A DNA stretch of 64,000 nt. Source: a phage. Positions 1 to 55,838 of this stretch are shown piece after piece. Location of the stretch: sequence record PZ495249.1. One strand, 5' to 3'. Position numbers and translations under genes: made by a program. How positions within the stretch are numbered: position 1 is the first letter of the stretch; each line of letters begins with the position of its first letter. The notes below the pieces were generated by a model. It did no database searches. It saw nothing but the letters and a program-made list of their open reading frames with translations, and was not told the DNA's origin.

Positions 1-2
1 TG

Positions 3-503
3 GAAGATAACAGCAATCTTTTCAGACTTGTTCGCATTGAAAACAACGGTGATTGGGTGTTTAAGGGTGTAACAACAGGAACTACTCAATTCTCTGGTGC
101 TGATATGGTGAAAACTGGTGAAGCCGTTATTACGCCAATGTACCCAGTTCTTCAAACAGAAAAACCAAAACGTGCCAAACGTAAAAAGGGTGAACGAAAC
201 AAAGCCCCAACTGTAAATAAAGCGACAATTACTTTCACAAGTGGAGAGCAGTATACAGTGAAAGACTTTATTTCCATCGAAGTAACTGCTGAGAAGGTTG
301 TCTTTATCATGGAAGATAACTGGAAAGATACTGTAAACTACCGTCAAGCAATCACCGTACCTAATGATGATGTTGCGCGTGTCAAAGTCCGTGGTGTTAA
401 CCATCAATTTGAACTGGATATGTCACTCACCAACTTGGGGACTGTGATCCTCGAAGCTGAGGGTGCAGAAATGTACACATCCTCCATTAACATGACTGTA
501 TAA
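3..503 (+). CDS. hypothetical protein, 5' end probably outside the window
   Basis: ORF 57..503 stays open in frame back to base 3; next gene starts 10 nt downstream with its own RBS. Confidence 0.5.
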   Translation, partial: EDNSNLFRLVRIENNGDWVFKGVTTGTTQFSGADMVKTGEAVITPMYPVLQTEKPKRAKRKKGERNKAPTVNKATITFTSGEQYTVKDFISIEVTAEKVVFIMEDNWKDTVNYRQAITVPNDDVARVKVRGVNHQFELDMSLTNLGTVILEAEGAEMYTSSINMTV

Positions 504-513
504 GGAGAAAGAA

Positions 514-1617
514 ATGTCTAAGAGTCCATTCCTGAATGCCGTGAAAGGCAATAAGCATGGTGCAAGTGTTCTGACCACTGTTGATGACAAACGCTCTGCA
601 CTGGCTCCAAGTGTGCTGGAAGCAAGCCCTGTGTTTGCTCCGGCAGTTGTTAAACCTGTACCTGCTCTTCCTGCAATGAGCCGCAAGGAGATTGATGGAG
701 TGGGCGCTGAGGCAGGACTAACTCTGCGTAGCCTCAACAGCGAAGTGCTGAAACACCAACGTGGTAATCAAGGCGGGGAGATGAATGAACGCCTCACTGC
801 CCTGATTAAACAGGCTAAACAGCTTGATCCTTCTTCAATCAAGCAGTCAAAAGGCGTTGGTAAATTCATCAAGAAGATCATGGGGCTGAAAGAAGATCTG
901 TTTGCTGAGTACGACAACGTTAACAACCGTATTGATGTTCTGGTGAAAGAACTGGAAGGTGATGTACGTAAAGAGGAAGATTCACTTGTCTATCTGGAAA
1001 AACTGAAATCCGCTATTGCTCAGTACGCCATGAGCCTTAACCGTGATGTGGAACTCCTGACGGACACCTACGCAAAAGAGGAAGCACGTTTCTTGAATAC
1101 ACCAGAGGAACAAGTGGAAACTCGTACCGAGATCCGTGATACCCTGGATATTCTGGAGATTCGTATTGCTGACCTTAAAGCACTGCGTCTGCTGTGTGTT
1201 CAGATGGGACCACGAGTGAACAGTATGATCAAGGTTAGCGAGATGCTTATGCGATCTGCTCGTAACATAGTGAACAACGTTATTCCGGCTTACTCTGCAA
1301 ACTTCTCAATGTATATTGAGAGCTTACGCCAGGCAGAAGCTGGTAAAACTCAGGCTAATGTGTTGGATGAATTCAACACTGCAATTCAAATGGGGAGCGA
1401 TTTGGCTGCACAAAACATTATCAATGCTACGGCTCTGTCTAACCGTCAGATTCTGGACATTGAAACCCTGCGTAAAGATCAGGAAAACCTGGTTAAAATG
1501 CTGGAAGAAACCAACCGCATCAATACCGAGGCTCGCGCCGCTCGTATTGATTACATCAACGAGGTTCAATCCCTGGAAGATGGGATGATCCAAAAAGTCA
1601 AATCTGGCTTAGTGTAA
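514..1617 (+). CDS. TelA-like (toxic anion resistance family) protein, tentative
   Basis: 367 aa, coiled-coil-rich all-alpha protein of typical TelA length; sits directly upstream of a vWA and a TerD gene; RBS aaggagaaagaa before ATG; no motif-level confirmation. Confidence 0.4.
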   Translation: MSKSPFLNAVKGNKHGASVLTTVDDKRSALAPSVLEASPVFAPAVVKPVPALPAMSRKEIDGVGAEAGLTLRSLNSEVLKHQRGNQGGEMNERLTALIKQAKQLDPSSIKQSKGVGKFIKKIMGLKEDLFAEYDNVNNRIDVLVKELEGDVRKEEDSLVYLEKLKSAIAQYAMSLNRDVELLTDTYAKEEARFLNTPEEQVETRTEIRDTLDILEIRIADLKALRLLCVQMGPRVNSMIKVSEMLMRSARNIVNNVIPAYSANFSMYIESLRQAEAGKTQANVLDEFNTAIQMGSDLAAQNIINATALSNRQILDIETLRKDQENLVKMLEETNRINTEARAARIDYINEVQSLEDGMIQKVKSGLV

Positions 1618-1626
1618 GGAGAAAAC

Positions 1627-1833
1627 ATGCGAATTCGTATTTATAAACTGGAAGATGGGTATGTAGCTGTTCGTTATGATGATGAAGAGCAGTTTGCAGG
1701 GAACAGTGATCATATTTTATCTTTCCCTAATCTGGAGCCTGTGTTGGCTGTTGGTCGTGAACTCTATGGTTATGACCAGTGTTCAGCAGAACGCTTTGAT
1801 GAACTTGAGTTGGTCAAGGAGTTTGAGGTATGA
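1627..1833 (+). CDS. hypothetical small protein
   Basis: 68 aa ORF; RBS ggagaaaac before ATG; tightly packed with neighbours. Confidence 0.45.
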   Translation: MRIRIYKLEDGYVAVRYDDEEQFAGNSDHILSFPNLEPVLAVGRELYGYDQCSAERFDELELVKEFEV

Positions 1834-2069
1834 AGATTGCTCTCGTAATTGCCGATTGCGGTGATGGTAGCGCCACTATTCGTTTCTTCAAAGATGTTGA
1901 CTTTGCGGAGAAGATCGCTTACCATGATTACTTCTGTGAAGAGTTAGCAATGAGCGAAGGTGGAACAATCATCGAAGTGCCTGATGACTTCAAACCACCC
2001 GCTGGTTGGTCAGATCAAGACTATCGTGAAGAAGTAGAACGTGCAGGGTTGGATTTAGACGATGAGTGA
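1830..2069 (+). CDS. hypothetical small acidic protein
   Basis: 79 aa ORF; ATGA start/stop overlap with upstream gene. Confidence 0.45.
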   Translation: MKIALVIADCGDGSATIRFFKDVDFAEKIAYHDYFCEELAMSEGGTIIEVPDDFKPPAGWSDQDYREEVERAGLDLDDE

Positions 2070-2268
2070 TAAAATTGTCTTGACACGCGAAGAGTTGAAG
2101 ACTATCATTGAAGACGCATTCATAGATGGTTGGAAGCAAGGGCAAGAATCGGATTGGTACGATGCAGAAGACTTTTTGCACTACCACGCCAATCCAGATG
2201 GTTCTGAGGAAGAAACTCAGTCTGAAACAACCATCGCAATCAAAAACTTAATGGAGGAAAAATTATGA
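2062..2268 (+). CDS. hypothetical small protein
   Basis: 68 aa ORF overlapping the stop of the upstream gene. Confidence 0.45.
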   Translation: MSDKIVLTREELKTIIEDAFIDGWKQGQESDWYDAEDFLHYHANPDGSEEETQSETTIAIKNLMEEKL

Positions 2269-3059
2269 GCGAGAAAATTAGTCTGGTGAAACGTCAGGAA
2301 CAACTGGTAATCAGCCTGAAAAAGAAAAAGATTGCACAGATCGTACTGCGCGTTGCATCTGCACTGGATATCTCCGGTAGTATGCACAGCCTATATCGTA
2401 ACGGGACTGTTAGCGATTTCGTTGGTAAACTCCTGCCGTTCGGTATGCAGTTTGACGATAACCAGCAGATCGATATGTGGGCGTTCAACAACTACTCTTC
2501 TGAACTGCCGCCAGCTACCGCTGACGTGTACGATGACTATGTAGGTAAATGTATGCGTAACGTATCCATCAATGGTGGCACGAGCTACGCACCAGTTATC
2601 CAGGCGATCTACGACGAATACTTTGGCTCTACGCCAATGAAAACTGTATCTCGTGAAGTTGAGGTACAAGAGCAGCGTCCGGTGAGCGGTTTCTTTGCCA
2701 AACTGACAGGTAAAACTGAAACCGTTACTGTCAAGAAAACGATCACAGAACAAGTACCAGATACCTCTGCGCCTGTGGATACCACACCTGCAATGGTGTT
2801 CTTCCAGACTGATGGTGAGAACAATGACGAATCCGCAGTACGCGCTGTACTGAACCGTAACAAAGGTAAACCTATCTACTGGTTCATGGTTGGTGTTGGT
2901 AATGCTCGCTTTAGCTTCCTGAAAGCTCTGGCAAATGAATACGATAACGTAGCTTTCATCGGCATTGATGACCTGGATCTGTCTGACGAGCAACTCTATG
3001 ACAAACTGCTGTCTGATGAGTTTGGTCAGTGGGTTGAGAAAGTAGGTGCAAAAAACTAA
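2265..3059 (+). CDS. von Willebrand factor A domain protein with TerD-like N-terminal ISLxK motifs
   Basis: MIDAS DISGS, then GGTSYAPVIQA and FFQTDGENND vWA motifs; N-terminus MSEKISLVK...ISLKK resembles the TerD N-terminus of the next gene; RBS ggagg. Confidence 0.75.
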   Translation: MSEKISLVKRQEQLVISLKKKKIAQIVLRVASALDISGSMHSLYRNGTVSDFVGKLLPFGMQFDDNQQIDMWAFNNYSSELPPATADVYDDYVGKCMRNVSINGGTSYAPVIQAIYDEYFGSTPMKTVSREVEVQEQRPVSGFFAKLTGKTETVTVKKTITEQVPDTSAPVDTTPAMVFFQTDGENNDESAVRAVLNRNKGKPIYWFMVGVGNARFSFLKALANEYDNVAFIGIDDLDLSDEQLYDKLLSDEFGQWVEKVGAKN

Positions 3060-3068
3060 AAATAGTTG

Positions 3069-3096
3069 TTGACTTACCCGAAGAAATACGTAGAAT
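3069..3096 (+). promoter_or_regulatory. sigma70-like promoter TTGACT-N16-TAGAAT upstream of terD
   Basis: -35 TTGACT at 3069..3074, -10 TAGAAT at 3091..3096. Confidence 0.45.
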
Positions 3097-3109
3097 AGAT
3101 TACATCAAA

Positions 3110-3130
3110 GGGGAAGAGCGGTTCTTCCCC
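3110..3130 (+). promoter_or_regulatory. leader hairpin in the terD 5' UTR
   Basis: Perfect 8 bp stem GGGGAAGA/TCTTCCCC with loop GCGGT between the promoter and the RBS. Confidence 0.4.
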
Positions 3131-3164
3131 CCAGTAAATGAAAACAGAAAGAAGGAGAACATAC

Positions 3165-3767
3165 ATGTCTGAGAAAATTTCCCTGAAAAAAGGTTCCACC
3201 GAAAAGATCTCCCTGAAAAAGATCGCACCTCTGCTGAAAGAGATTCGTCTGGAATTCTCCTGGAAATCATCCACTAAACTGGATCTGGACGTAAGCGCAC
3301 TGGTGTGCCGTCATAATGCCTCTGGTAATCCAGAAATGCTGTCTGCCCGTCACCTGGTTTGCTATGCAAACAAAGTTGATCCAGAGCGTTCAACCTTCGC
3401 TGGCGAAGATGTTCGTGATGGTACTGGCAACCTGGAGCAGATCGATGTTACTCTGAGTAAAATCTCCCAGAATGCAGATGAAATTGCATTCGTGATCACC
3501 ATCGACGATGAAACTGGTCAGAAGCGCCTCGGTCATGCCTCCGAAGGTATGCTGAAAATCTTCGACGCAGAACGTAACGTCGAGATCCTGGACTTTGACT
3601 TCCTTGCACCGGAAGTTGCTGGTAACACCATCTGTCACGTAGCTTCGCTGGTTCGCGAAGATGGCGAATGGAAACTGAAAGCCTACGGTGTTGGTAAAGC
3701 AGGTATGGATATCTGTGATGTGGTGGTAGCATTCGGTGGTGACGTCAACTGGTTTGACTGCCCGTAA
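3165..3767 (+). CDS. terD: TerD-family protein (tellurite resistance / stress response)
   Basis: Protein-level resemblance to E. coli TerD as recalled: MSEKISLKKG...ISLKK, DLDVSALVC, DGEWKLKAYGVGKAG; RBS agaaggagaa before ATG at 3165 (ORF track start 3138 is upstream of the RBS). Confidence 0.85.
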   Translation: MSEKISLKKGSTEKISLKKIAPLLKEIRLEFSWKSSTKLDLDVSALVCRHNASGNPEMLSARHLVCYANKVDPERSTFAGEDVRDGTGNLEQIDVTLSKISQNADEIAFVITIDDETGQKRLGHASEGMLKIFDAERNVEILDFDFLAPEVAGNTICHVASLVREDGEWKLKAYGVGKAGMDICDVVVAFGGDVNWFDCP

Positions 3768-3782
3768 GGATTAATCTGCCAC

Positions 3783-3800
3783 GGAGGGCGCAAGCCCTCC
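3783..3800 (+). terminator. GNRA-tetraloop hairpin after terD (terminator or processing site)
   Basis: GGAGGGC-GCAA-GCCCTCC; no T tract follows. Confidence 0.35.
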
Positions 3801-3828
3801 CCACTGAAACTTAAAGAAGGAGAATAAA

Positions 3829-4482
3829 ATGAGTGCATTAGAGAAACTGCGTAGCCTGTTCGAAGAAGATTTTGTTATTGATGTGGACTACAACGCAGCT
3901 AAGAGCCGCAAAGCTACAGCTTTATTTCAAGATGTAAGGGATATGGGTATTCATTTCACCGTCTGCGAGAATTTTGAAGATACTTGGATGGGTAAAACTG
4001 GTTTCACAATTGATAACTGGAACTATATGGGTATCAAAGACGGTGACACCGAGATCGATGACTGCGACTGGAGTGATCGTGATCCTCTCGAAGTAGAAGA
4101 GTTTGAAGAGATGGTTAGTGCAGCAATATCGGAATTCCAGTATCTGCAAAGTTTACCATCTTCAACCACTCTTGCAGTAGGTGTAAATACTGCTCCAGTG
4201 GCAATCGTGTTGGGTGATAATCTGGTAGTTAGCGGTGGTGTAGTTGTCGTCAACTATAAAAACGGTAGTTCTTACCACCTGGAACATGACGGTAAAGCTA
4301 CTCTGATCGTCGCAGACAAGGTGGTAGTCACAGAGCGTACTTTCCTGAAAGATGGTCAACCAGCCTACGAGCGTGTGACTGTCAAACTGGAATCTCTGGA
4401 TAATATTCAGAGCGACACCCTCAAGCTCACCGTCCTTGAAGATGGCGCTAAAGTGGACTTCACCACCACTTTCACACTGTAA
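3829..4482 (+). CDS. hypothetical protein
   Basis: 217 aa ORF; RBS aaggagaa; followed by an intrinsic terminator. Confidence 0.5.
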   Translation: MSALEKLRSLFEEDFVIDVDYNAAKSRKATALFQDVRDMGIHFTVCENFEDTWMGKTGFTIDNWNYMGIKDGDTEIDDCDWSDRDPLEVEEFEEMVSAAISEFQYLQSLPSSTTLAVGVNTAPVAIVLGDNLVVSGGVVVVNYKNGSSYHLEHDGKATLIVADKVVVTERTFLKDGQPAYERVTVKLESLDNIQSDTLKLTVLEDGAKVDFTTTFTL

Positions 4483-4485
4483 CAT

Positions 4486-4511
4486 GAGAGGGGCGAAAGC
4501 CCCTTTCTCTT
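4486..4511 (+). terminator. intrinsic terminator
   Basis: AGGGGC-GAAA-GCCCCT followed by TTCTCTT. Confidence 0.55.
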
Positions 4512-4569
4512 GCAAAATCCTCCCTCCTGTGATAGAATAATAGTTCGTAAAACAAAAAGGAGGCAAAAT

Positions 4570-5094
4570 TTGCTGATACGAAACTTTGTAACAATTGCGT
4601 TACTATCATTAACTGCTTTTACATTTACACCTGTAATCGGCGTTGCCGAAGCTGCAAACGTAAAGACCGCTAAAGTAGTCCACAAGTGTACAAAGCGAGA
4701 TACGAAAGAAAATCTTTTAGCTTGTGCAATGTACGCAGAGAGCCGTAACCAAGGAAAGAAAGGAATGGCTGCTGTCGGTAATGTTGTTCTGAATCGTGTT
4801 AACGATCCTCAGTTCCCTAAGACCGTCAAAGGTGTTCTCTTCCAACCAGGACAATTCTCATACACGTATAAAGGCGCATTTAATGTCGTCGAAAAGGACA
4901 GATGGCAGGAGGCAAAGCATATTGCTGATCGCTTAATCTACCTTGATAAGAACTTCCCCGAAGCTCGTGATGCAACAGATGTAACGAAAGGGGCTAAGTA
5001 TTTCAAAAAGAAGAATATCCGTACCCATTGGGAGAAGGATATGATCTTGGTGTACCGTTACAAGGAACATCAATTCTATATACCTAAGAGCTAA
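4570..5094 (+). CDS. SleB-like cell-wall hydrolase with N-terminal signal peptide (candidate secreted endolysin)
   Basis: AMYAESRNQ...GNVVLNRV...FPKTV...QPGQFS resembles the Hydrolase_2/SleB family; predicted signal peptide MLIRNFVTIALLSLTAFTFTPVIGVAEAA; probable TTG start at 4570 after RBS aggagg. Confidence 0.6.
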   Translation: MLIRNFVTIALLSLTAFTFTPVIGVAEAANVKTAKVVHKCTKRDTKENLLACAMYAESRNQGKKGMAAVGNVVLNRVNDPQFPKTVKGVLFQPGQFSYTYKGAFNVVEKDRWQEAKHIADRLIYLDKNFPEARDATDVTKGAKYFKKKNIRTHWEKDMILVYRYKEHQFYIPKS

Positions 5095-5103
5095 GGAGAA
5101 AAT

Positions 5104-5385
5104 ATGCAGGATAGACATGTAGTGGTGGCGAGTTATTTGATGATTGGACTCACTGAGGAGGATGCTCTGTACATCCGTAAACACCTCGAAAGTTATGGTC
5201 AGATGTTCGTGGAGGAAGATGAGAACCCAAACGTGTTTCACGTAGAGGTTATTCACGACTCTATCTATCCTTGCATAGCTCTCAAGGTTGATGCAGAGGT
5301 GTGGGAACGTTTTTCACGATCTCACGACATGGTAGAACTCAGTGCTACGATGGCACAGAATAACATCTTGGGAGCAGTACATTGA
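5104..5385 (+). CDS. hypothetical protein
   Basis: 93 aa ORF; RBS aaggagaaaat. Confidence 0.45.
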   Translation: MQDRHVVVASYLMIGLTEEDALYIRKHLESYGQMFVEEDENPNVFHVEVIHDSIYPCIALKVDAEVWERFSRSHDMVELSATMAQNNILGAVH

Positions 5386-5609
5386 TGGCAGATATCATCG
5401 AAGTTAATTTTCGTACTAAGAAACGTATTGAGAAGTACACAATCCTGAAAAATGTTTGCGTTGTGTGTTTCAACAGTGTAATCTATGACTCTCGTCGGGA
5501 AGATAACTCCCCGTATATTGAACTTGAAAAGAACAAAGGCAATTGTATCTGTAAAGATTGTGCCGTAGCCATTAAGGAGGTTGTTGATGCAAACGAATGG
5601 GACAAATGA
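5382..5609 (+). CDS. hypothetical small Cys-rich protein
   Basis: 75 aa ORF with CVVC...CICKDC spacing suggesting a zinc-binding fold; ATGA overlap with upstream gene. Confidence 0.4.
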   Translation: MMADIIEVNFRTKKRIEKYTILKNVCVVCFNSVIYDSRREDNSPYIELEKNKGNCICKDCAVAIKEVVDANEWDK

Positions 5610-5784
5610 TGTAGAGGTGTTTGATGACCTGACTCAGGTGACAGACGAGAAGCTCTTGAAGCTGCGCGATGTGGCTGGTGATCATCTCCAGGAGACTTTC
5701 ACAGAGTACATGGCTGCACGAGATCGCTCTATTGCCATTCAGTTGGAGCTACAGAATCGTGGCATTGTGAAGCCTAAAGATTAA
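5581..5784 (+). CDS. hypothetical small protein
   Basis: 67 aa ORF. Confidence 0.35.
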   Translation: MLMQTNGTNDVEVFDDLTQVTDEKLLKLRDVAGDHLQETFTEYMAARDRSIAIQLELQNRGIVKPKD

Positions 5785-5846
5785 TAGGCAATACCGATTG
5801 GACATTTCCACTGATCGGTGCTAAATTAACATTACAGGAGGGAGAA

Positions 5847-6410
5847 ATGATCTTCCACATTACTCCCTATCTTTCTGGTGATATCGGCAAAGGCATCAAC
5901 GATACCATCCGTGAACTGCCGGAAGATAGTTGGATTTGCTTGAGGGATATCGACACGATGTTCCTACTACCAGAACAACCGATGTGGCTTGAAACCCTCG
6001 TCCGTTCTAACCCAGAGTATGATGTTATTGGTGCATCATGCAACCGCTTGGGATCTACTTACCAATTGTTCGGTAACGAAATAAGTGACGATTCAGACAT
6101 ACGCAATCACATAGAAATTGCGAAAGCAGCCCGAACAGCCTGGGGCAATAGCATTGAAGATGTTCCTCTGGGAGTACCACTTGCAGGATTCTTCTTATTA
6201 TTCAGGAAGAGTTTGTGGCAAGAAATTCCATTCGAAGAAAGATCTATTCAATTCGATTTAATCTTCTCTAATACTCTACACGCAGCAGGAAAGCGATTAG
6301 GAATCATGCGAGGAATGTATCTGTTCCATACTTATCGTCTTGGAGCAATCGATCCACGTAGAGCCATTTCGCATCTCATTCACTGCCAGGATATGGAGAA
6401 GGTAATATGA
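5847..6410 (+). CDS. hypothetical protein, possible small GT-A-like glycosyltransferase
   Basis: 187 aa; RBS ggagggagaa; DxD-like RDID motif; first gene of a three-gene block. Confidence 0.3.
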   Translation: MIFHITPYLSGDIGKGINDTIRELPEDSWICLRDIDTMFLLPEQPMWLETLVRSNPEYDVIGASCNRLGSTYQLFGNEISDDSDIRNHIEIAKAARTAWGNSIEDVPLGVPLAGFFLLFRKSLWQEIPFEERSIQFDLIFSNTLHAAGKRLGIMRGMYLFHTYRLGAIDPRRAISHLIHCQDMEKVI

Positions 6411-6436
6411 TTGATAATTTAAGGAGGATGTTAAAC

Positions 6437-7405
6437 ATGCTTGTTCATAAGCCCCGCTTATATTGTGATAACAAGTTAGGGAGTGGGTGCGACTATCACC
6501 GAGTGGTGATGCCTTTTGCTGATAATAAATTCAAACCAAAAGAGAATGTATTGGTGTTCAACCGTATTTATTCTCGTGGTGCAGAAGAGGTTCGCCGTCT
6601 GAAAGAGCGTGGTGTTAAAGTGGTAGTAGATTTAGATGACTTCTATGAACTTAACCCTGAGCATTACCTGGCAAGCGTGTTCACAAGTCACACACAGAAC
6701 ATCATTGACATGGTGAAATTAGCAGATATTGTTATCGTCACCACTGAATATCTGGCTTACAAGGTAAGGCCACTGAATAGAAATGTGGTGGTTATCCGTA
6801 ACGCACTGCCTTTCGACACTGGTCAGTTTACCCTGAGTGAAGATAAAGAGTCAGACACTCCGCTGATATGGGCGGGTGGTGCAAGTCACTATCCTGATCT
6901 ATCTCTTGTCTCGAACAGTTTTGATGATGATTTGTTAACAATTGCCGGATATGAAGAGCACAAGTCTGCTCCTGCTGGTAGTCATCAGCAATTGACAACT
7001 GCCGAGTGGAGAAAAGTCAGACGTAAGCTACCAAATGCACAATACAAACCAGCAGTACATCATTTAGGCGAGTATATGTCGGTGTACGATGGTCATGCCG
7101 TAGCTATTGCTCCCTTGGTTGATAACGACTTCAATGCTTGTAAAAGCAACTTGAAGATCCTGGAGGCAGGAGCTAAGGGACTACCTATCATTTGTTCTAA
7201 GGTGTTACCATATTATAATCCGGTGGATGCTAACGTGGTGTTTTATGCTGAATCCCGCGCAGAATGGCACTACGAGGTGGTGAAACTTCTTCGTAATCCA
7301 AACTACGCAGAGGATCGTGGTTTAATGCTTGCAGAACACGTCAGAACACATTACAATCTTGATGATGCAAATGAATTGCGCCGACAAGTGATCGAAAGTT
7401 TATAA
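6437..7405 (+). CDS. putative GT-B glycosyltransferase, paralog A
   Basis: Shares DGH.V.IAPLVDN.FN.(A/C)KSNLKILEAGAKGLP.ICS and MDLDD blocks with the next gene; start chosen at third in-frame ATG by RBS spacing (6407 and 6428 also possible). Confidence 0.5.
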   Translation: MLVHKPRLYCDNKLGSGCDYHRVVMPFADNKFKPKENVLVFNRIYSRGAEEVRRLKERGVKVVVDLDDFYELNPEHYLASVFTSHTQNIIDMVKLADIVIVTTEYLAYKVRPLNRNVVVIRNALPFDTGQFTLSEDKESDTPLIWAGGASHYPDLSLVSNSFDDDLLTIAGYEEHKSAPAGSHQQLTTAEWRKVRRKLPNAQYKPAVHHLGEYMSVYDGHAVAIAPLVDNDFNACKSNLKILEAGAKGLPIICSKVLPYYNPVDANVVFYAESRAEWHYEVVKLLRNPNYAEDRGLMLAEHVRTHYNLDDANELRRQVIESL

Positions 7406-7413
7406 GGAGTTCT

Positions 7414-8358
7414 ATGCCTAACATTGTGCTTGACACACGCGACGGACATAATTATAGTGTCTGTGATTTCCATAGAATTATCCTTCCATACAAACGAGCG
7501 CTCACCATTAACCCACAACACAATATCTTCGTGTTCAATGGTGTGCCTACTCGTGGGAAGTCAGGATTCCTGGCTCTCAAACAACTTGGTTTCAAAATGG
7601 TTATGGATCTTGATGACTCTCTACATATTCCAGAAGGACATATGCTTGAGGACTTGTTTGATACCCGTATCCGTGATGACCTCAAGTGGTTTTTGGAACG
7701 GAGTGATTTGGTAACAACAACTACTCCTGCTCTCCAGAAAGAACTCTCAGAATATAATGACAACGTGCATATTGTGCCGAATGGTTTGCCTTTCGATGAA
7801 TGGCAATTCACCATAACAAAGGATCGTTATTCTAAGAGTCCACTGGTGTGGGCTGGCAGTGAAACCCATAAACATGACTTGGCAATCCTACCGCCCCTCG
7901 GTAAGATGCTAACACTCTGCGGATTCCGTAGAGACAAAGAAGAGCTAAGTAGCTTGCAATGGATATTGATACGAGAAGATATTCAACCTGATTGTATCTA
8001 TGAAGGTGTCCGACCATACGCCACTTACATGGAATCGTATGACGGTCATCAGGTGAGCATTGCTCCACTTGTGGATAATCCTTTTAATAATGCAAAAAGC
8101 AATCTCAAGATTCTTGAGGCTGGAGCCAAAGGCTTACCGCTGATTTGTTCTCCTCGTGAGAATTATTTCACCGAAGAGTTTAAGGATCTGGTTTACTTTG
8201 CCGATTCATTATCCGAATGGAAAGATCTGGTAGAATACTTAGTAGAGTCTCCAGATATTTGTGTTGAAAAGGGAATGGCCTTAGCCAAATATGTACGTGC
8301 TCAATACAGTATTGACGCATTAAACGAGACTCGTAGATTACTTATTGAGAGGTTGTAA
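7414..8358 (+). CDS. putative GT-B glycosyltransferase, paralog B
   Basis: Tandem paralog of 6437..7405 with the same conserved C-terminal block. Confidence 0.5.
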   Translation: MPNIVLDTRDGHNYSVCDFHRIILPYKRALTINPQHNIFVFNGVPTRGKSGFLALKQLGFKMVMDLDDSLHIPEGHMLEDLFDTRIRDDLKWFLERSDLVTTTTPALQKELSEYNDNVHIVPNGLPFDEWQFTITKDRYSKSPLVWAGSETHKHDLAILPPLGKMLTLCGFRRDKEELSSLQWILIREDIQPDCIYEGVRPYATYMESYDGHQVSIAPLVDNPFNNAKSNLKILEAGAKGLPLICSPRENYFTEEFKDLVYFADSLSEWKDLVEYLVESPDICVEKGMALAKYVRAQYSIDALNETRRLLIERL

Positions 8359-50449: not shown

Positions 50450-50524
50450 TGGTTGTAGCAGATGGAATCGAACCATCATCAATCGGTTATCAGCCGAACG
50501 TATTAGCCGTTATACTATGCCACA
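50450..50524 (-). tRNA. tRNA-Ile (anticodon GAT)
   Basis: 7 bp acceptor with encoded CCA, loop CTGATAA, T arm GATGG-TTCGATT-CCATC; hand-folded. Confidence 0.55.
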
Positions 50525-50530
50525 ATTGTT

Positions 50531-50613
50531 TGGCATCCAGGTGAGGAATCTAACCCCTTGAAACTGGTTTTGGAGGCCAGCAACGGGAACACCCATTTTT
50601 AATCTACCCAGAT
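50531..50613 (-). tRNA. tRNA-like element, possibly Trp (CCA) with aberrant D region
   Basis: Acceptor pairs with two G/U wobbles; loop CTCCAAA; T loop TTAGATT lacks C56; D region about 7 nt too long. Confidence 0.25.
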
Positions 50614-50619
50614 ATTGTT

Positions 50620-50695
50620 TGGAGGCGGGAGCCGGAATCGAACCGACCTGCGACAAGCATATGAAACTTGTGAGTTCCCAGAACTCTATCCCGCA
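50620..50695 (-). tRNA. tRNA-Met (anticodon CAT) with U1/C72 mismatch
   Basis: Loop TTCATAT, T arm GTCGG-TTCGATT-CCGGC, CCA encoded. Confidence 0.5.
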
Positions 50696-50776
50696 CTTTT
50701 GGTTGATAGTAAGAGAATCAAACTCTTCTCACAACGCCGTATGAAAGCGTCCGAAACATCAGCTTCACACTATCAA

Positions 50777-51040
50777 TTAAACACGATGGATTATTTTAAC
50801 TGTCTCACCCTTATCATTCATAAGGTAGGCACTTTCATTCCTATGAATAAAGTCCGTAGAGTTGCCACTAATGACACTTGCAATAACACCATCCAGCTTA
50901 TCATAACCTTCAAAATGATATTGGATGTGTATATTTCCATCAAGTTCTATATAATGTTCTTCTTCATCTACCTCGTAAGGTACTGAGTCATAAATTTTTG
51001 TCCCTTTGGGGAACTTGCGAACTATTTTCAATGTATACAT
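50777..51040 (-). CDS. hypothetical protein inside the tRNA array
   Basis: 87 aa; RBS gaaggaaa. Confidence 0.4.
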   Translation of the reverse strand: MYTLKIVRKFPKGTKIYDSVPYEVDEEEHYIELDGNIHIQYHFEGYDKLDGVIASVISGNSTDFIHRNESAYLMNDKGETVKIIHRV

Positions 51041-51124
51041 AGTATTTCCTTCGTAGTGTTTATATTAGTAATATGCCGTCCCAAGCCGAACGGCGATTAG
51101 TGTTTTAGCTTGGCATTGATAATA

Positions 51125-51199
51125 TGGTACTTCCTGGAGGAATCGAACCACCGACGCTCACCTTGTAAGGATGACGTTCTACCATTGAACTAAGGAAGT
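51125..51199 (-). tRNA. tRNA-Val (anticodon TAC)
   Basis: D arm GTTC-AATGGTA-GAAC, loop CTTACAA, T loop TTCGATT. Confidence 0.6.
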
Positions 51200-51272
51200 A
51201 TGGCGGGGATTTTCCGCACTGTCTATCGCGATATGGACTCGGACAGTGTTCTCGGCTAAATACCCCATTGTT

Positions 51273-51359
51273 TGGTACATCAGGTCAGACTCGAACTGAC
51301 ACGCCCTCACGAGCACTGGAACCTAAATCCAGGGCGTCTACCAATTTCGCCACTGATGC
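51273..51359 (-). tRNA. tRNA-Leu (anticodon TAG), long variable arm
   Basis: Loop TTTAGGT, 15 nt variable arm, T loop TTCGAGT. Confidence 0.6.
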
Positions 51360-51367
51360 ATTTAATT

Positions 51368-51444
51368 TGGTGGAGAAGTGGAGAATCGAACTCCATACTC
51401 GAAGGTGCAAACCTCGTGTTTTAACCGAATATTACTACATCCCC
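51368..51444 (-). tRNA. tRNA-Ala (anticodon TGC)
   Basis: Loop TTTGCAC; G3/U70 wobble in the acceptor stem (Ala identity element); T arm TGGAG-TTCGATT-CTCCA. Confidence 0.6.
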
Positions 51445-51506
51445 AATTTGTATACACTACACAGAAGATAGGTCTGATTGCCTCGGCAGTTGCCGTAGTG
51501 TTTATC

Positions 51507-51582
51507 TGGTACGGATGGAAGGAGTCGAACCTCCGACGCAGGGCTTCGTAGACCCTCGTTCTATCCACTGAACTACACCCGT
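51507..51582 (-). tRNA. tRNA-Arg (anticodon ACG)
   Basis: D arm GTTC-AGTGGATA-GAAC, loop CTACGAA, T arm GGAGG-TTCGACT-CCTTC. Confidence 0.7.
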
Positions 51583-51588
51583 ATTGTT

Positions 51589-51663
51589 TGGTGCAGAGTG
51601 TTGGTAACGATCCAACCTGTGTGGCTTTTCAGACCACCACTAATCCATCTCAGTTAACTCTGC
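51589..51663 (-). tRNA. tRNA-Phe (anticodon GAA)
   Basis: Loop CTGAAAA; T loop ATCGTTA (A54/U58 covariation). Confidence 0.6.
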
Positions 51664-51669
51664 ATAATC

Positions 51670-51745
51670 TGGTCAGTGAGAGAGGACTCGAACCTCCAAC
51701 AGCTACGCCCCAAACGTAACACTCTACCACTTGAGCTACTCACTG
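51670..51745 (-). tRNA. tRNA-Pro (anticodon TGG)
   Basis: C1-G72 first pair typical of bacterial tRNA-Pro; loop TTTGGGG. Confidence 0.6.
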
Positions 51746-51752
51746 ATAAATC

Positions 51753-51827
51753 TGGCTACAGGTCTTGGGATCGAACCAAGTCATACGGTGGTCAAAGCAC
51801 CGTGCCTTCCCATTTGGCTACCCTGTA
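51753..51827 (-). tRNA. tRNA-Gln (anticodon TTG)
   Basis: U1-A72 and 3 bp D stem GCC/GGC as in E. coli tRNA-Gln; loop CTTTGAC. Confidence 0.6.
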
Positions 51828-51834
51828 ATTAAAT

Positions 51835-51922
51835 TGGTATCGTGGACGAGATTCGAACTCGCAAGGGATTACTCCCGCCAGATTGAAAGTCTGGTTACTT
51901 AGGCCGTTTTGTATACCACGAT
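51835..51922 (-). tRNA. long-variable-arm (type II) tRNA with anticodon loop CTTTCAA (anticodon TTC); isotype ambiguous
   Basis: Perfect acceptor ATCGTGG/CCACGAT, anticodon stem CCAGA/TCTGG, 15 nt variable arm with GGGA-GTAA-TCCC stem, T arm GCGAG-TTCGAAT-CTCGT. Confidence 0.45.
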
Positions 51923-52025
51923 ATAAAATTTCTTAAAGAGAACTGCTGAAAGTTGAAGGAGAAAACCATGAGCGAAAAGAGAAAAGGTTTCCAGCAGTTC
52001 CATTTAAAAAATCTCGTAGGGTTGT

Positions 52026-52104
52026 TGGCGCGGGTGACAGGATTCGAACCTGCGACGAACTGGGTGGAAGCCAGACACTCTACCAAACTGAGTTACACAC
52101 GCGC
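52026..52104 (-). tRNA. tRNA-Gly (anticodon TCC)
   Basis: Loop CTTCCAC, T arm GCAGG-TTCGAAT-CCTGT; D region slightly long. Confidence 0.5.
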
Positions 52105-52170
52105 TGATTAACAACTCTATAATACTACTCTACTACATTTTAGCCCTCGTTGTCAAGGGCTTTTGACAAA

Positions 52171-52497
52171 TTATTTCAGAAGTTTTTCCAAACCTTGCTT
52201 CATCGCATACTCTATGAAGAAGTTTAGTTCACCGATTAACTCTGGTTCCCACTGGTCTTCCAAGCCATAACATGAACAATGTCCACCATGAACTTCATAA
52301 AACTTATTGTCACGCTTATCGTAGAAGTAAACATCGGATGATCCAGTGTAGCACTCATACGTATAATCTGCGTACAGGATGATAATATCATCTTCTGTTA
52401 GATCAACATGATAATCACTCATCACTTGATCGAAGTCTGAAAAGTCGTTATCATACACGTCAACATGCAGATACTTTTCTAATTCTTGTTTATCCAT
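52171..52497 (-). CDS. hypothetical acidic protein inside the tRNA array
   Basis: 108 aa; strong RBS aagaggaggaaac; HGGHCSCYG motif. Confidence 0.5.
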   Translation of the reverse strand: MDKQELEKYLHVDVYDNDFSDFDQVMSDYHVDLTEDDIIILYADYTYECYTGSSDVYFYDKRDNKFYEVHGGHCSCYGLEDQWEPELIGELNFFIEYAMKQGLEKLLK

Positions 52498-52737
52498 GTT
52501 TCCTCCTCTTTAGAATATGTGGGGCAGTGACGGATACCCCTTTGGGTGACAAACCCTACGTTCGGAAGCTCGGTCAGACTGACACAAAACACGAAGTCAA
52601 ATGTCCTTCCTCCCTGCTGTCGATTGGAGAGAGCCGATCCCCTCTGAACTTCATTTAAGCGCGATACCACTTAGGGCTGTCTAACACTTTCCTGAACTTA
52701 CCAATCCACCTAATCCCAGTCACGGTTTCGGATTTTC

Positions 52738-52813
52738 TGGTGCTCCCACACTGAATCGAACAGTGATTTGCGGGTTACAAAGCCGCAGTAATAGGCCATT
52801 ATACGATAGGAGC
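52738..52813 (-). tRNA. tRNA-Thr (anticodon TGT)
   Basis: T arm CACTG-TTCGATT-CAGTG, loop TTTGTAA closed by a C/C mismatch. Confidence 0.55.
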
Positions 52814-52819
52814 AAATTT

Positions 52820-52895
52820 TGGCGGGCAATATTGGATTCGAACCAATTACCATTCGGTTAACAGCCGACCGCACATCCGTATGTGCTTATCACCC
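52820..52895 (-). tRNA. tRNA-Asn (anticodon GTT)
   Basis: Loop CTGTTAA, T arm ATTGG-TTCGAAT-CCAAT, acceptor with two G/U pairs. Confidence 0.55.
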
Positions 52896-52973
52896 ATGTT
52901 CTTCGTTAAGAGTAGGCGCGTTTCATCAGTCGCCTCGTGTTATTTTCTCCTGTTTCCAGGCTCCCTTTAGTGC

Positions 52974-53096
52974 TCGCGAGGGAGGGATTCGAACCACTCA
53001 CCTCTGCCAGAGCCAACCAGATCTTTCGGGTAATTACTCCGTCCAACCATTTGATTAACCTGCTGGCAGCGTCCATCGCCCTTAGACTGCCTCGCG
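52974..53096 (-). ncRNA. tRNA-like element, 123 nt, perfect 7 bp acceptor but weak T stem (pseudo-tRNA or tRNA with insertion)
   Basis: Acceptor CGCGAGG/CCTCGCG, T loop TTCGAAT present, about 35 nt more than a type II tRNA. Confidence 0.2.
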
Positions 53097-53136
53097 TCTG
53101 TCAATTCAGATGCCACTAAAGCTCTCTCAACTAATT

Positions 53137-53220
53137 TGGTGTGGGTAGATGGATTCGAACCACCGCGCCTTTCGGATCAGATTTACAGTCTGGTGCATTC
53201 AGCCACTCTGCCATACCCAC
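53137..53220 (-). tRNA. tRNA-Tyr (anticodon GTA), long variable arm
   Basis: Loop CTGTAAA, T arm GGTGG-TTCGAAT-CCATC, CCA encoded. Confidence 0.7.
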
Positions 53221-53226
53221 ATTGTT

Positions 53227-53303
53227 TGGTGCGCCGGAAAGGATTCGAACCTTTAGTCCTCTCATTAAAAGTGAGATGCCTTATCCAGTTTAGCTACCGA
53301 CGC
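53227..53303 (-). tRNA. tRNA-Lys (anticodon TTT)
   Basis: D arm GCTA-AACTGGATAA, loop CTTTTAA, T arm AAAGG-TTCGAAT-CCTTT. Confidence 0.7.
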
Positions 53304-53443
53304 ATAAATTTTCTTTAGGATAGGAAGTGTGGGGCACTTCACTATTTATATCGGTGATGGTTGCCGCCATCTGCCGAAAGTTTACTCTATCTAAGTAAGA
53401 GTCGAAACGCTACACGAATAGTATTTCTATCATAAAGAAAACT

Positions 53444-53529
53444 TGGCGGAAGAGGGGAGGGTTGAACTCCCACGCCCTTTCGGACGGCAGTTTAGCAAAC
53501 TGCTATGGCTACCATTTCATCACTCTTCC
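53444..53529 (-). tRNA. tRNA-Ser (anticodon GCT), long variable arm
   Basis: Loop TTGCTAA, 14 nt variable arm, T arm GGGAG-TTCAACC-CTCCC. Confidence 0.65.
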
Positions 53530-53537
53530 ATTTTGTT

Positions 53538-53614
53538 TGGCAGTCGCGACGGGTTACGATCCCGCATTCTCTCCCGTGACAGGGGAGTACCATTACCAAG
53601 CCAGCCCCGCGACT
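53538..53614 (-). tRNA. tRNA-Asp (anticodon GTC)
   Basis: Anticodon arm CTCCC-CTGTCAC-GGGAG; T loop ATCGTAA. Confidence 0.65.
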
Positions 53615-53621
53615 ATTAATT

Positions 53622-53711
53622 TGGAGGAAGATAATGGAGTCGAACCATCACCGTATCACTACAATGGGCCAGGGTTCAAATCTGGTTGCGTACCACTACG
53701 CCCTATCTTCC
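53622..53711 (-). tRNA. tRNA-Ser (anticodon TGA), long variable arm
   Basis: Acceptor GGAAGAT/ATCTTCC, loop TTTGAAC, long variable arm. Confidence 0.55.
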
Positions 53712-53775
53712 AATCTATACTTCTTAGTCTATCATACTTTTCAATCGGTTGTCAATAGCTTTTTGAAAATTATTT

Positions 53776-53853
53776 TGGTCGGGGAGATAGGACTCGAACC
53801 TACATTTCCTCCATTACGCTATACGGCTTAGAAGACCGCCACGGTACACCCCG
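53776..53853 (-). tRNA. tRNA-like element, possibly Arg (TCT), with aberrant D region
   Basis: T arm GTAGG-TTCGAGT-CCTAT and arm GCGGT-CTTCTAA-GCCGT present, but no canonical D arm and 19 nt between anticodon and T arms. Confidence 0.3.
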
Positions 53854-53881
53854 ATCTCTTAGTGCTGACTATAACATAACT

Positions 53882-54052
53882 TATTCGTTACTGTCAAGCT
53901 CTTTTTTAATTTCTTTTCTTGCTTTCTGACGTTCAGTGGCTTTACACACTTCCTGCCAAGATTCGTACTCGTCACCTTTACGGTAGCCACGGCTACGACA
54001 AAGGGAGCAGAGACAACCTTCTTGACGATATTTCAAACCATGAGGTTTCATA
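53882..54052 (-). CDS. hypothetical small Cys-rich protein (not in ORF track, 56 aa)
   Basis: ATG after strong RBS aaggaggatatATG; MKPHGLKYRQEGCLCSLCRSRGYRKGDEYESWQEVCK. Confidence 0.4.
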
Positions 54053-54064
54053 TATCCTCCTTAA

Positions 54065-54139
54065 TTGGTGAGCATTACCAGATTCGAACTGGTGTCTTTC
54101 GGGTTTAGAATCCTACGCTTTACCGCTAAGCTAAATGCC
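54065..54139 (-). tRNA. tRNA with anticodon CTA (candidate amber suppressor); low-confidence fold
   Basis: Acceptor GGGCATT/AATGCTC, D arm GCTT-AGCGGTA-AAGC, T arm ACCAG-TTCGAAT-CTGGT, loop TTCTAAA; anticodon stem has two mismatches. Confidence 0.35.
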
Positions 54140-54371
54140 CTTCGTAAATGTCACGACTATCAGGATCGTGATACAATTCTGCAATTTCTTTACTTAAAGT
54201 AGCTCTCAGTATAATCCCTTTGTGCGAAACAATCAAGTAGATTTTCGTTTCACTTACATCTCCAGGGGCTAAGAGTTTACCTCTTACAATCCGCAAACGT
54301 TCTGCTGAATACCCTTCTTCGAGATCAGCCAACATATCTGCCAACGATTTAGAGAAAGTTAACCGATGCAA
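54126..54371 (-). CDS. hypothetical protein (TTG start, weak)
   Basis: 81 aa ORF with weak RBS; 3' end overlaps the CTA tRNA. Confidence 0.25.
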   Translation of the reverse strand: MHRLTFSKSLADMLADLEEGYSAERLRIVRGKLLAPGDVSETKIYLIVSHKGIILRATLSKEIAELYHDPDSRDIYEGHLA

Positions 54372-55459
54372 GGTATTACTTTCACGGTTTACAATTCCCC
54401 AGATACGATCATCCAGTTTGCAACTTCCTGACTCACAATTAGTCTATGACATTTTCGTTCTCCTGTTTGTTAATAAAACATATAAAGAAGGACAATGATC
54501 AGGTGACGTTTGCCAACGCCCTGCCGAAGTTCCGAAGATTGCAAGTCTTCGCTTGAACCGCATTTCATCAGGAGTAACGTATGATCAGTACGTTTTTCCG
54601 AAATGCTCACACCCCACGGTGCTGACAGTTTTAACACCAATCAATGCCTTTCTTTATATGTTCTGTCGATGGTGGAGGACGGTACGGGATTTTAACCCGT
54701 CTAAACTGGTTTGCAATCAGCCACATAGACACTCTGACAACCGTCCCATCGAAAAGCCAGTCTGTTCCTGGCTGTCACCACAGTTTTAACATTCTGTGGC
54801 TTGAACGTAGGAGCTATTCGATGCTGGCATTCTCCCGTAGCTCTGCCTTTATAGGGGTATGAACCCGTAGGGCGCACCTTATTGTTCCGTTCAAGGGATC
54901 ATGTTGAATGTTAACCTCTGCTTTTCCTTTAGGTTATTCGGAGAGGTACAACGATTGGGTTAGCGAAGCCCAAACACCTCCAGAGCAAACAACAATCTCC
55001 AAAACTGGTGTGACTGGTGGGGCATGATCCCACATCATCTCCTTCACAGGGAGGAACGTTAACCAGCTTACGCTCACAGTCACCATTGTTTGTAGTGTCT
55101 CCAAGGCTTCCTATTCCATCCTAAGATGATCCACCCCTTCAACTAACGCGCTACATCCCTACGAAGAATGAACGTCATTCTCATCGTCTGAAATCTTGTT
55201 CAGAGCATACCACTGCGGAGATTAACCCGCTTCTCATCCTACGTGGTCGGTAGTAGTTGTCAATCAAACAACTCGTAAAATATATTCTCGTAAGAACACA
55301 TATTGCGAGAGTTTGGCACCAGGAGGAGGAGTCGAACACTCCTAATCAGGTCATGACTCCTGACTATCTCAAACCAAACACTGTTGTGTCGGCTATTGCA
55401 TAACAGCGAGCGCTCACTCCTATGCAGACCTTCACCAGTGTCGAGATCCTGGTATTGTT

Positions 55460-55550
55460 TGGTACGGGTGACGAGATTCGAACTCGTAAGATCATCAAAG
55501 ACCTGGGGGATTTTAAGTCCCATGTGTACTGCCAATACCACCACACCCGC
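55460..55550 (-). tRNA. tRNA-Leu (anticodon TAA), long variable arm
   Basis: Anticodon arm GGGA-CTTAAAA-TCCC as in E. coli Leu-UAA; T arm ACGAG-TTCGAAT-CTCGT; 91 nt. Confidence 0.7.
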
Positions 55551-55558
55551 TTTATTTA

Positions 55559-55741
55559 TTATCGACGAAGAATATCAATCACTTCGCCAAGCAACGCACT
55601 GTACGCCGCATCTTCGAGAATATCCTTCTGGAGTTCACTGTCAATCCCTGTTACGCTCTCGACAGTATCTGTTACCGGAGATACAACATCACGAGCAACG
55701 CTGGTAACATCATCAAGCACTTCACCGATAAATCCGAACAT
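55559..55741 (-). CDS. hypothetical small acidic protein
   Basis: Start set at ATG 55741 after RBS aaagaggagaa. Confidence 0.4.
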   Translation of the reverse strand: MFGFIGEVLDDVTSVARDVVSPVTDTVESVTGIDSELQKDILEDAAYSALLGEVIDILRR

Positions 55742-55760
55742 AATATTCTCCTCTTTAAGT

Positions 55761-55838
55761 TGGTGGTTCCACCTGGTTTCGAACCTGGACACTCTCGGTT
55801 ATGAGCCGAGTGCTCTGACCTACTTGAGCTATGGAACC
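55761..55838 (-). tRNA. tRNA with anticodon CAT (elongator Met or Ile2)
   Basis: Perfect acceptor GGTTCCA/TGGAACC, anticodon arm CTCGG-CTCATAA-CCGAG, T loop TTCGAAA. Confidence 0.6.

Follow-up and report, generated by a model that had tools for sequence, protein, structure and literature searches.

The distal half of a Ter-type gene module in a virulent phage: gene content, conservation and possible role

Which purpose might genes of the bacterial Ter stress-response type serve in a virulent phage? This question is raised by the first kilobases of a 64,000-nucleotide (nt) phage sequence (record PZ495249.1), the whole of which is referred to as the window and on whose plus strand the features described below are located unless stated otherwise. 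For positions 514-3767 an original prediction, made from the letters alone, had proposed three consecutive genes for a TelA-like protein, a fusion of a TerD-like N-terminus with a vWA domain, and a TerD protein, forming one compact cluster with its own promoter. Based on profile searches, structure predictions and comparisons with related phages and metagenomic contigs, it is nearly certain that this stretch represents the distal half of a self-contained phage Ter module. The identification of the Ter genes was broadly right; the fusion was wrong and the novelty of the cluster was overrated.

All three proteins yielded strong matches to the corresponding TelA, TerD and vWA profiles, confirming a Ter-type cluster in a virulent phage. 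The telA-like gene (514-1617) encodes a protein of 367 amino acids which matched Pfam TelA (PF05816) with E = 2.8e-33 and 115.8 bits (cut-off 30) over profile positions 13-330 of 332, and PHROG 5890 'tellurite resistance' with E = 3e-115. Its assignment had been regarded as the weakest link of the proposed cluster and turned out to be among the strongest calls. The 264-amino-acid product of the gene at 2265-3059 matched Pfam vWA-TerF-like (PF10138; E = 4.1e-39, 135.3 bits, cut-off 29.4), with weaker matches to VWA and Copine. The product of the last open reading frame (ORF), terD (3165-3767, 200 amino acids), matched Pfam TerD (PF02342; E = 1.5e-28, 100 bits, cut-off 25.3) as well as the solved structures 2KXT (Klebsiella TerD; E = 7.5e-15) and 3IBZ (E = 2.5e-13), so that the TerD call also stands.

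The start codon of terD had been placed at 3138. It is most likely the ATG at 3165, since AAGGAGAA is located 5 nt upstream of it and since the product comprises 200 amino acids in every relative and in every metagenomic gene call. An exact-sequence look-up detected the identical 200-amino-acid TerD on 11 metagenomic contigs; the same look-up with TelA matched no contig. In the relatives TerD carries the GenBank label 'yceD general stress protein 16U'.

The vWA domain was found to be complete, as had been proposed from its DISGS, GGT and TDG motifs. The residues of the metal ion-dependent adhesion site (MIDAS), D35, S37 and S39 (DISGS), T106 (GGT) and D183 (TDG), are invariant in a 41-sequence alignment of the family. 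The AlphaFold2 model of the protein (predicted local distance difference test, pLDDT, 90.8) comprises a helix at residues 7-20, the standard vWA fold and a long β-hairpin arm at residues 125-165, and contains no TerD domain. Its best Foldseek matches in the PDB were the copine-type vWA domains of RGLG1/2 and BON1, followed by CMG2 and the MIDAS domain of MDN1; one of the matched RGLG1 structures has Ca2+ bound in the MIDAS site. A PDB search with the sequence alone returned chance-level matches only. The arm of approximately 40 residues (window 2637-2759), capped by a short helix (GFFAKL), was modelled confidently; it differs in length between members of the vWA-TerF-like family, some of which lack it, as does a TerF-type fusion.

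The proposed TerD-like N-terminus, in contrast, was rejected as a domain. The Pfam TerD profile did not match the vWA protein even at E <= 1, and the similarity to the neighbouring TerD is limited to the first 20 residues (MSEKISL.K...ISLKK), 13 of which are identical (E = 0.024 in a single comparison). Since the serines common to both leaders use different codons in the two genes, the resemblance exists at the peptide level. The leader, modelled as a helix, is nearly invariant (M1, L7, K9) in a diverse set of 41 vWA-TerF-like proteins. The TerD domain of true TerF-type fusions covers residues 1 to approximately 185 and the vWA domain follows after residue 213. In one of them (P0073; TerD domain 2-184, vWA from 251) the phage leader aligns to the linker at 231-250.

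The alignment with such fusions thus extends from the linker leader 'VSLVKR...' through the entire vWA domain (26% identity, E = 6e-24), whereas the TerD domain of approximately 185 residues is missing from the phage protein and is encoded by the next gene downstream. Furthermore, the phage protein carries the β-hairpin insert of approximately 40 residues that the fusion lacks. The product of 2265-3059 is therefore a stand-alone TerF-type vWA protein, with TerD being supplied by the neighbouring gene.

The idea of one compact cluster had to be revised as well, since the window cuts away the upstream half of the module. This half is visible in L003 (Ga0496123_0000130), a 153,725-bp metagenome contig of the Joint Genome Institute which encodes an identical TerD and, over 13.4 kb, shares 98.2% identity with the window, whose first position falls on L003 position 6850. 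Just beyond the left edge of the window L003 encodes, on the same strand as the Ter genes, a HAD-like hydrolase, a PRTase_3 protein and a Macro domain protein (L003 1460-3994), and TerC 1.4-2.3 kb upstream of the window start. The matches to PRTase_3 (E = 3.4e-40; 3e-40 to 4e-45 across the loci) and TerC (E = 5e-41) are strong, and the Macro call exceeds its Pfam cut-off. The HAD score of 21.6 bits (E = 3e-4) in L003, like that of 26.2 bits in phage phi92, lies below the cut-off of 26.4, and only the homologue in contig L029 exceeds it (31.9 bits).

There is hardly any doubt about the full array, which runs on one strand in the order HAD hydrolase, PRTase_3, one ORF, Macro, two small ORFs, TerC, five ORFs, TelA, three small ORFs, vWA-TerF-like and TerD, its seven named genes spanning approximately 9 kb. 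The three genes in the window are not strictly consecutive, as the ORFs 1627-1833, 1830-2069 and 2062-2268 separate telA from the vWA gene. As a reference frame for membership we used the Ter stress-response system as it is said to have been defined by Anantharaman, Iyer and Aravind in 2012. The linkage of TerD to TelA and a vWA gene is present within the window, and that to TerC upstream in L003. The linked PRTase and HAD genes are located outside the window, the HAD call in L003 being below its cut-off. In a comparative-genomics model these two enzymes represent the 'nucleoside-like metabolite' arm of Ter systems (PMC7824862).

The window starts with a densely packed array of ORFs on the plus strand (1-8000), in which the Ter genes precede the primase-helicase and DNA polymerase genes, all of them being encoded on one strand. 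The closest group of phages is formed by myoviruses of approximately 150 kb, i.e. the phi92/phAPEC8 group (Stephanstirmvirinae) and related Klebsiella phages. Nearest among the isolates is Klebsiella phage KP2025, with approximately 82% nucleotide identity across 60% of the first 6 kb. Judged by these sequences, the window phage is a species distinct from KP2025 and the phi92 relatives.

The gene set, its order and its strand are the same in the array of phi92 (genes 187-172), in the Stephanstirmvirinae (Justusliebigvirus, Phapecoctavirus) and in KP2025, where the Ter genes are likewise followed by a hypothetical protein, a cell-wall hydrolase, glycosyltransferases and the DNA polymerase. In phi92, partly annotated ever since it was published, the genes are labelled as hydrolase (187), putative phosphoribosyltransferase (186), phosphatase/Macro (185), membrane tellurium-resistance protein (182), tellurite resistance (178), hypothetical protein (173, corresponding to the vWA gene) and stress protein (172). 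The KP2025 labels are 'toxic anion resistance protein' for the protein with 88% identity to the window TelA, 'VWA domain-containing protein' and 'TerD-like protein', and similar ones are used for ESCO13 and others. The arrays differ in the small ORFs that separate telA from the vWA gene, in an additional SprT-like gene of KP2025 and in a hairpin in the terD leader, which phi92 lacks. The extra gene of KP2025 (L001 4246-4824; PF10263, E = 1e-11) lies immediately 5' of telA and is missing in the window and in L003.

The telA, vWA and terD genes are conserved as a block in related as well as unrelated phages. At an identity of at least 60% the DNA polymerase was found in 134 phage records and, at comparable identity, vWA in 133, TerD in 132 and TelA in 132, these numbers being matching counts rather than a comparison of individual records. 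The number of subfamily genomes with the trio, phi92 among them, thus roughly equals that with the DNA polymerase; the identities are 73-88% for TelA, 73-85% for vWA and 81-96% for TerD. Outside the subfamily the order TelA, vWA, (TerC), TerD recurs at 22-35% identity in the Otagovirus phiPsa315, in the Brevundimonas jumbo phage Gurke and in metagenomic viral contigs; in phiPsa315 and Gurke TerC is located between vWA and TerD.

We also compared 91 loci by our own profile searches, comprising 80 viral-contig loci retrieved with the vWA alignment and other loci already fetched. The vWA gene is directly followed by terD in 85 of them, which points to these two genes as the invariant core. Around 30 loci additionally carry TelA and/or TerC, whereas 52 contain vWA and TerD only, neither TelA nor TerC being present within flanks of 10 kb. 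The latter are located on large viral contigs (L033-L089), many of 100-250 kb and mostly from sample 3300045988; the pair is preceded by a Macro gene in 11 of the 52. A physical partnership of TerD and vWA is supported by some homologues of cellular or unassigned type in which both are fused in one protein.

A HAD gene with PRTase_3 directly downstream occurs in 13 of the 91 loci, at three different positions, two of them inside the cluster. Contig L028 shows the order TelA, HAD, PRTase_3, vWA, TerC, TerD, and contigs L029 and L031 the order TelA, vWA, TerC, HAD, PRTase_3, TerD. That the two genes turn up at three positions speaks for functional coupling and against synteny by chance, and the rearrangement of the genes with their linkage being kept is good evidence that they work together.

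Ter genes in phages have been described before. The cluster is already annotated in GenBank and has been discussed in three publications (PMC7824862, PMC8386662, PMC9796965), so the window adds one more member. For phiKp34 terC, terF vWA domain, terD and telA genes were described (PMC8386662). The authors of the phiPsa374 study called the function of its Ter set unknown and considered tellurium resistance unlikely for an incomplete set (PMC9796965). Ter genes have furthermore been reported in jumbo phages and 'related smaller tailed phages', together with a proposed use against superinfecting phages (PMC7824862). The sets of phiPsa374 and phiPsa315, phiKp34 and the Caulobacter and Brevundimonas jumbo phages share TelA, vWA-TerF-like, TerC and TerD genes with the window module, as well as the succession of TelA, vWA and TerD. 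They differ in the place of TerC, which lies between vWA and TerD and not ahead of TelA, in that HAD, PRTase_3 and Macro genes are not adjacent, and in that the proteins are only 22-35% identical.

With the bacterial terZABCDEF operons (IncHI2 plasmid R478, virulence plasmids of K. pneumoniae, O-islands of enterohaemorrhagic E. coli) the module has TerC, a TerD-domain protein and the TerF vWA module in common. Unlike these operons it encodes a single TerD instead of the TerZ/A/D/E/F paralogues, a vWA protein separate from TerD, and no TerB was seen near it; HAD, PRTase_3 and Macro are added, and TelA, which in bacteria belongs to the separate telAB/kilA locus, is included. The non-viral yceCDEFGH stress operon of Bacillus subtilis, a part of the cell-envelope stress regulon, combines TerD-like YceC/D/E, TerC-like YceF/MeeF and TelA-like YceH. 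To our knowledge, it contains neither a vWA-TerF-like gene nor a PRTase/HAD pair.

A promoter and a leader hairpin, which had been assigned to the cluster as a whole, are both present and would serve terD alone. A promoter-like site of the sigma-70 type (TTGACT-16-TAGAAT) is located in the spacer between the vWA gene and terD at 3069-3096 and agrees with the consensus at 10 of 12 positions. Promoter-like sites in the region 1-6000 do not exceed the background (11 versus 9.9 in shuffled sequence). We accepted only this site, because its -35 (TTGAC) and -10 (TA(G/A)AAT) elements do not vary among the window, KP2025 and phi92 even though the intervening sequence has diverged, and regard it as a putative promoter of terD. 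The telA start follows the stop codon of the ORF before it by 10 nt, and no promoter dedicated to telA was detected there. The best sigma-70 match in the region (TTGACA-17-TATCAT, 11/12; 2080-2108) lies inside the ORF 2062-2268, approximately 160 nt 5' of the vWA start.

The predicted 5' end of the terD transcript carries a GC-rich hairpin of 8 bp (3110-3130; -13.5 kcal/mol, z -3.2). Since a U-tract is missing, it may possibly act as a 5' stabiliser of the mRNA. The counterpart in KP2025 differs in sequence but still forms a hairpin of 8 bp (-16.3 kcal/mol); none was found at the same place in phi92. Just past the terD stop codon a GC hairpin of 7 bp with a GCAA loop, likewise without U-tract (3783-3800; -15.6 kcal/mol, z -3.1), is a candidate terminator or mRNA stabiliser.

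How might these genes act together? Our tentatively favoured explanation, to which we assign somewhat less than an even chance, is that TerC, TelA and the vWA-TerD pair would form an early-expressed, cation-dependent complex at the inner membrane which is tuned by the HAD/PRTase_3 product and serves as a barrier against superinfection. Transcription of the module by the host RNA polymerase would precede or accompany that of the replication genes. TerC would act as an inner-membrane transporter of divalent cations (Mn/Zn/Ca-type) and TelA would form a helical layer beneath the membrane. The vWA protein would bind a partner through its metal-loaded MIDAS site and, paired with the cation-binding TerD, would in effect represent a split TerF. 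HAD and PRTase_3 would provide a nucleoside-like ligand tuning the complex. An inner membrane hardened in this way might withstand further DNA injection, pore-forming colicins and similar insults, resulting in superinfection exclusion and the protection of the ongoing infection.

Such an exclusion mechanism mirrors the phenotypes of bacterial ter operons, for which phage inhibition and colicin resistance have been reported, with terC of K. pneumoniae contributing to Zn, Mn and phage resistance (PMC12054061). Besides these phenotypes, a complex at the membrane is suggested by the Ca2+ binding of TerD (Pan et al. 2011, as cited in PMC8123226), by the complete MIDAS of the vWA protein and by TerC being an integral membrane protein. 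The conserved putative terD promoter also counts in its favour, and the glycosyltransferase genes downstream would fit an envelope-directed region.

Several observations weigh against the superinfection barrier. The acidic loop of TerD (residues ~80-95) reads GEDVRDGT--GNL-E in the clade of the window phage in comparison to the canonical GDNRTGEGDGDDE; it is thus two residues shorter and lacks the GDGDD cluster, with the DLD motif (LDLDVSA) being retained. The canonical Ca2+-binding loop motif, reportedly GDN(R/L)TG(E/A)GDGDDE according to Pan and colleagues (2011), is therefore not present in the window TerD, and Ca2+ binding by the TerD of this clade may be altered. Other viral TerD proteins retain the canonical loop, and one metagenomic group carries an insertion of approximately 10 residues there. 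Furthermore, the 52 loci with vWA and TerD only imply that the membrane components are not obligatory for the core pair. TerB, which belongs to the minimal terBCDE set for tellurite resistance in bacteria, was not found among the precomputed Pfam matches within 10 kb on either side of terD in L003, and the PADLOC defence models did not match any of the eight proteins around the locus at E <= 0.1.

The role of TelA adds to these points. It is putatively an elongated coiled-coil protein. Its AlphaFold2 model, built from a 27-sequence alignment, consists of helices only, including ones of 78 and 92 residues, and is of low confidence (pLDDT 59.6); this poor model had no Foldseek match in the PDB at E <= 0.001. 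The matches above this threshold were generic long-helix proteins (BAR domains, AhlC/ClyA, designed bundles; E >= 0.0046, template modelling score <= 0.39), from which no conclusion was drawn, and a PDB search with the TelA sequence returned no match. The published prediction is hence the sole source from which a TelA scaffold beneath the membrane may be assumed. Finally, a literature search for functional tests of phage Ter genes retrieved only genome descriptions and one comparative-genomics hypothesis.

The module might instead maintain the divalent-cation balance and envelope integrity for the infection of the phage itself, which appears possible but doubtful. A part in membrane or Ca2+ homeostasis had already been suggested in the original prediction and is a reasonable idea. 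TerC would export Mn, Zn or Ca and TerD and vWA would sense the load, so that the cell is held together and the metal-dependent phage enzymes are supplied over a long latent period, exclusion not being the purpose. This would agree with the role of terC in Zn and Mn resistance and the metal-inducible ter operon of K. pneumoniae (PMC12054061), with the Ca2+ binding of TerD and the involvement of a Streptomyces TerD-domain gene in Ca homeostasis, both as cited in PMC8123226, and with the intact MIDAS motif. A module needed in every infection would also be expected to be about as frequent as the DNA polymerase, as it is in this strictly virulent 150-kb subfamily. However, according to the organism counts it is absent from the next-closest relatives by DNA polymerase, the PAK_P1-like phages of Pseudomonas, and thus not generally required for such replication. 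In addition, many viral loci lack TerC near the vWA-TerD pair, and the best-documented bacterial phenotypes concern invaders and toxins.

An output of metabolic nature, in which HAD, PRTase_3 and Macro make or remove a nucleoside or ADP-ribose-like molecule and TerD, vWA, TelA and TerC act as sensors or exporters, for example in countering a host defence based on nucleotide signalling or ADP-ribosylation, seems unlikely. It would account for the strong PRTase_3 matches and for the Macro call above its cut-off (the HAD call exceeding its own only in L029), for the three arrangements of HAD and PRTase_3 with Ter genes and for the Macro gene beside vWA and TerD in 11 further loci, and it would fit the nucleoside-like metabolite of the published Ter model (PMC7824862). 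On the other hand, HAD and PRTase_3 were present in only 13 of the 91 loci, marking the enzymes as accessories of the vWA-TerD core instead of the other way round, and the Macro domain could be an unrelated neighbour.

It had also been proposed that the phage proteins counter a host Ter system, i.e. that they act as mimics poisoning or hijacking the host complex. Bacterial ter operons reduce phage growth, and Klebsiella, the host of the closest isolates, often carries ter genes on virulence plasmids (PMC12054061). Nevertheless, such an anti-defence role is very unlikely, because the phage encodes a full, self-sufficient set including a membrane protein and enzymes instead of a single decoy subunit, because the identity to bacterial TerD and TelA is only ~20-30%, and because in 18 records with the module the host is given as E. 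coli K-12 MG1655. We know of no ter operon (terZABCDEF) in this strain.

Least probable of all, and close to being dismissed, is a moron conferring tellurite or xenobiotic resistance on the host, as suggested by the 'tellurite resistance' labels in PHROG and GenBank and by the mention of xenobiotic resistance during pseudolysogeny (PMC7824862). The phages are virulent, TerZ, TerA and TerE paralogues, like TerB, were not seen near the module in L003, and incomplete phage sets were judged unlikely to provide tellurium resistance (PMC9796965).

Returning to the superinfection barrier, a more speculative extension, which we consider rather doubtful, is that the conserved unit is the vWA-TerD pair itself, a split TerF acting as a portable, ligand-tuned and cation-dependent switch for the exclusion of rivals, to which the lineages would independently have added TelA, TerC and HAD/PRTase_3. 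If this were true, it would represent a widespread phage exclusion system without a described mechanism, and the short TerD loop and the 40-residue arm of the vWA protein could be signs that the partner or the ion specificity has been retargeted.

Of the stress and defence genes in bacteria that still lack an explanation, the Ter genes are among the most widespread. Whole families of virulent phages have them as a core module, candidates for phage therapy against E. coli and Klebsiella among them. The label 'tellurite resistance' is unlikely to describe a transferable resistance trait, which matters for therapy-oriented annotation. The comparison defines a seven-gene module, its vWA-TerD core and the co-moving HAD/PRTase_3 genes, and is mainly useful for planning experiments.

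Two further searches around the locus concern known defence systems and families. The TerY-P anti-phage system (TerY vWA, PP2C and Ser/Thr kinase) was considered and rejected, given that PADLOC returned no match to it and that no kinase or PP2C was seen in L003. The NCBIfam search returned noise only.

The three small overlapping ORFs between telA and the vWA gene (68, 79 and 68 amino acids, respectively) appear to be variable filler. They had no Pfam match and matched only PHROGs of unknown function. In KP2025, in an E. coli phage and in phi92 other ORFs take this place, and only the last of the three is partly common to KP2025. Two flanking ORFs, the partial one at 57-503 and the one encoding a protein of 217 amino acids at 3829-4482, were left out of the module, since both are confined to the subfamily and without informative matches.

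Directly past the Ter genes a SleB-type cell-wall hydrolase is encoded at 4510-5094 (Pfam Hydrolase_2, E = 1e-21; PHROG endolysin). Three ORFs at 5847-8358 have relatives in phi92 which carry a glycosyltransferase annotation, and a weak precomputed Glyco_trans_1_2 match was present downstream in L003. The hydrolase and glycosyltransferase genes suggest an envelope-directed neighbourhood.

At a distance from the module, ARAGORN predicted 23 tRNA genes on the minus strand of the window at 50450-55838, and two further tRNA matches were obtained with Rfam (53779-53853 and 54676-54746). The tRNA at 54066-54140 has a CUA anticodon resembling that of an amber suppressor; it was labelled tRNA-Pyl by ARAGORN and reached 60.2 bits with the Rfam tRNA model. 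In a crude set of 67 ORFs TAA is used as stop codon in 50, TGA in 10 and TAG in 7.

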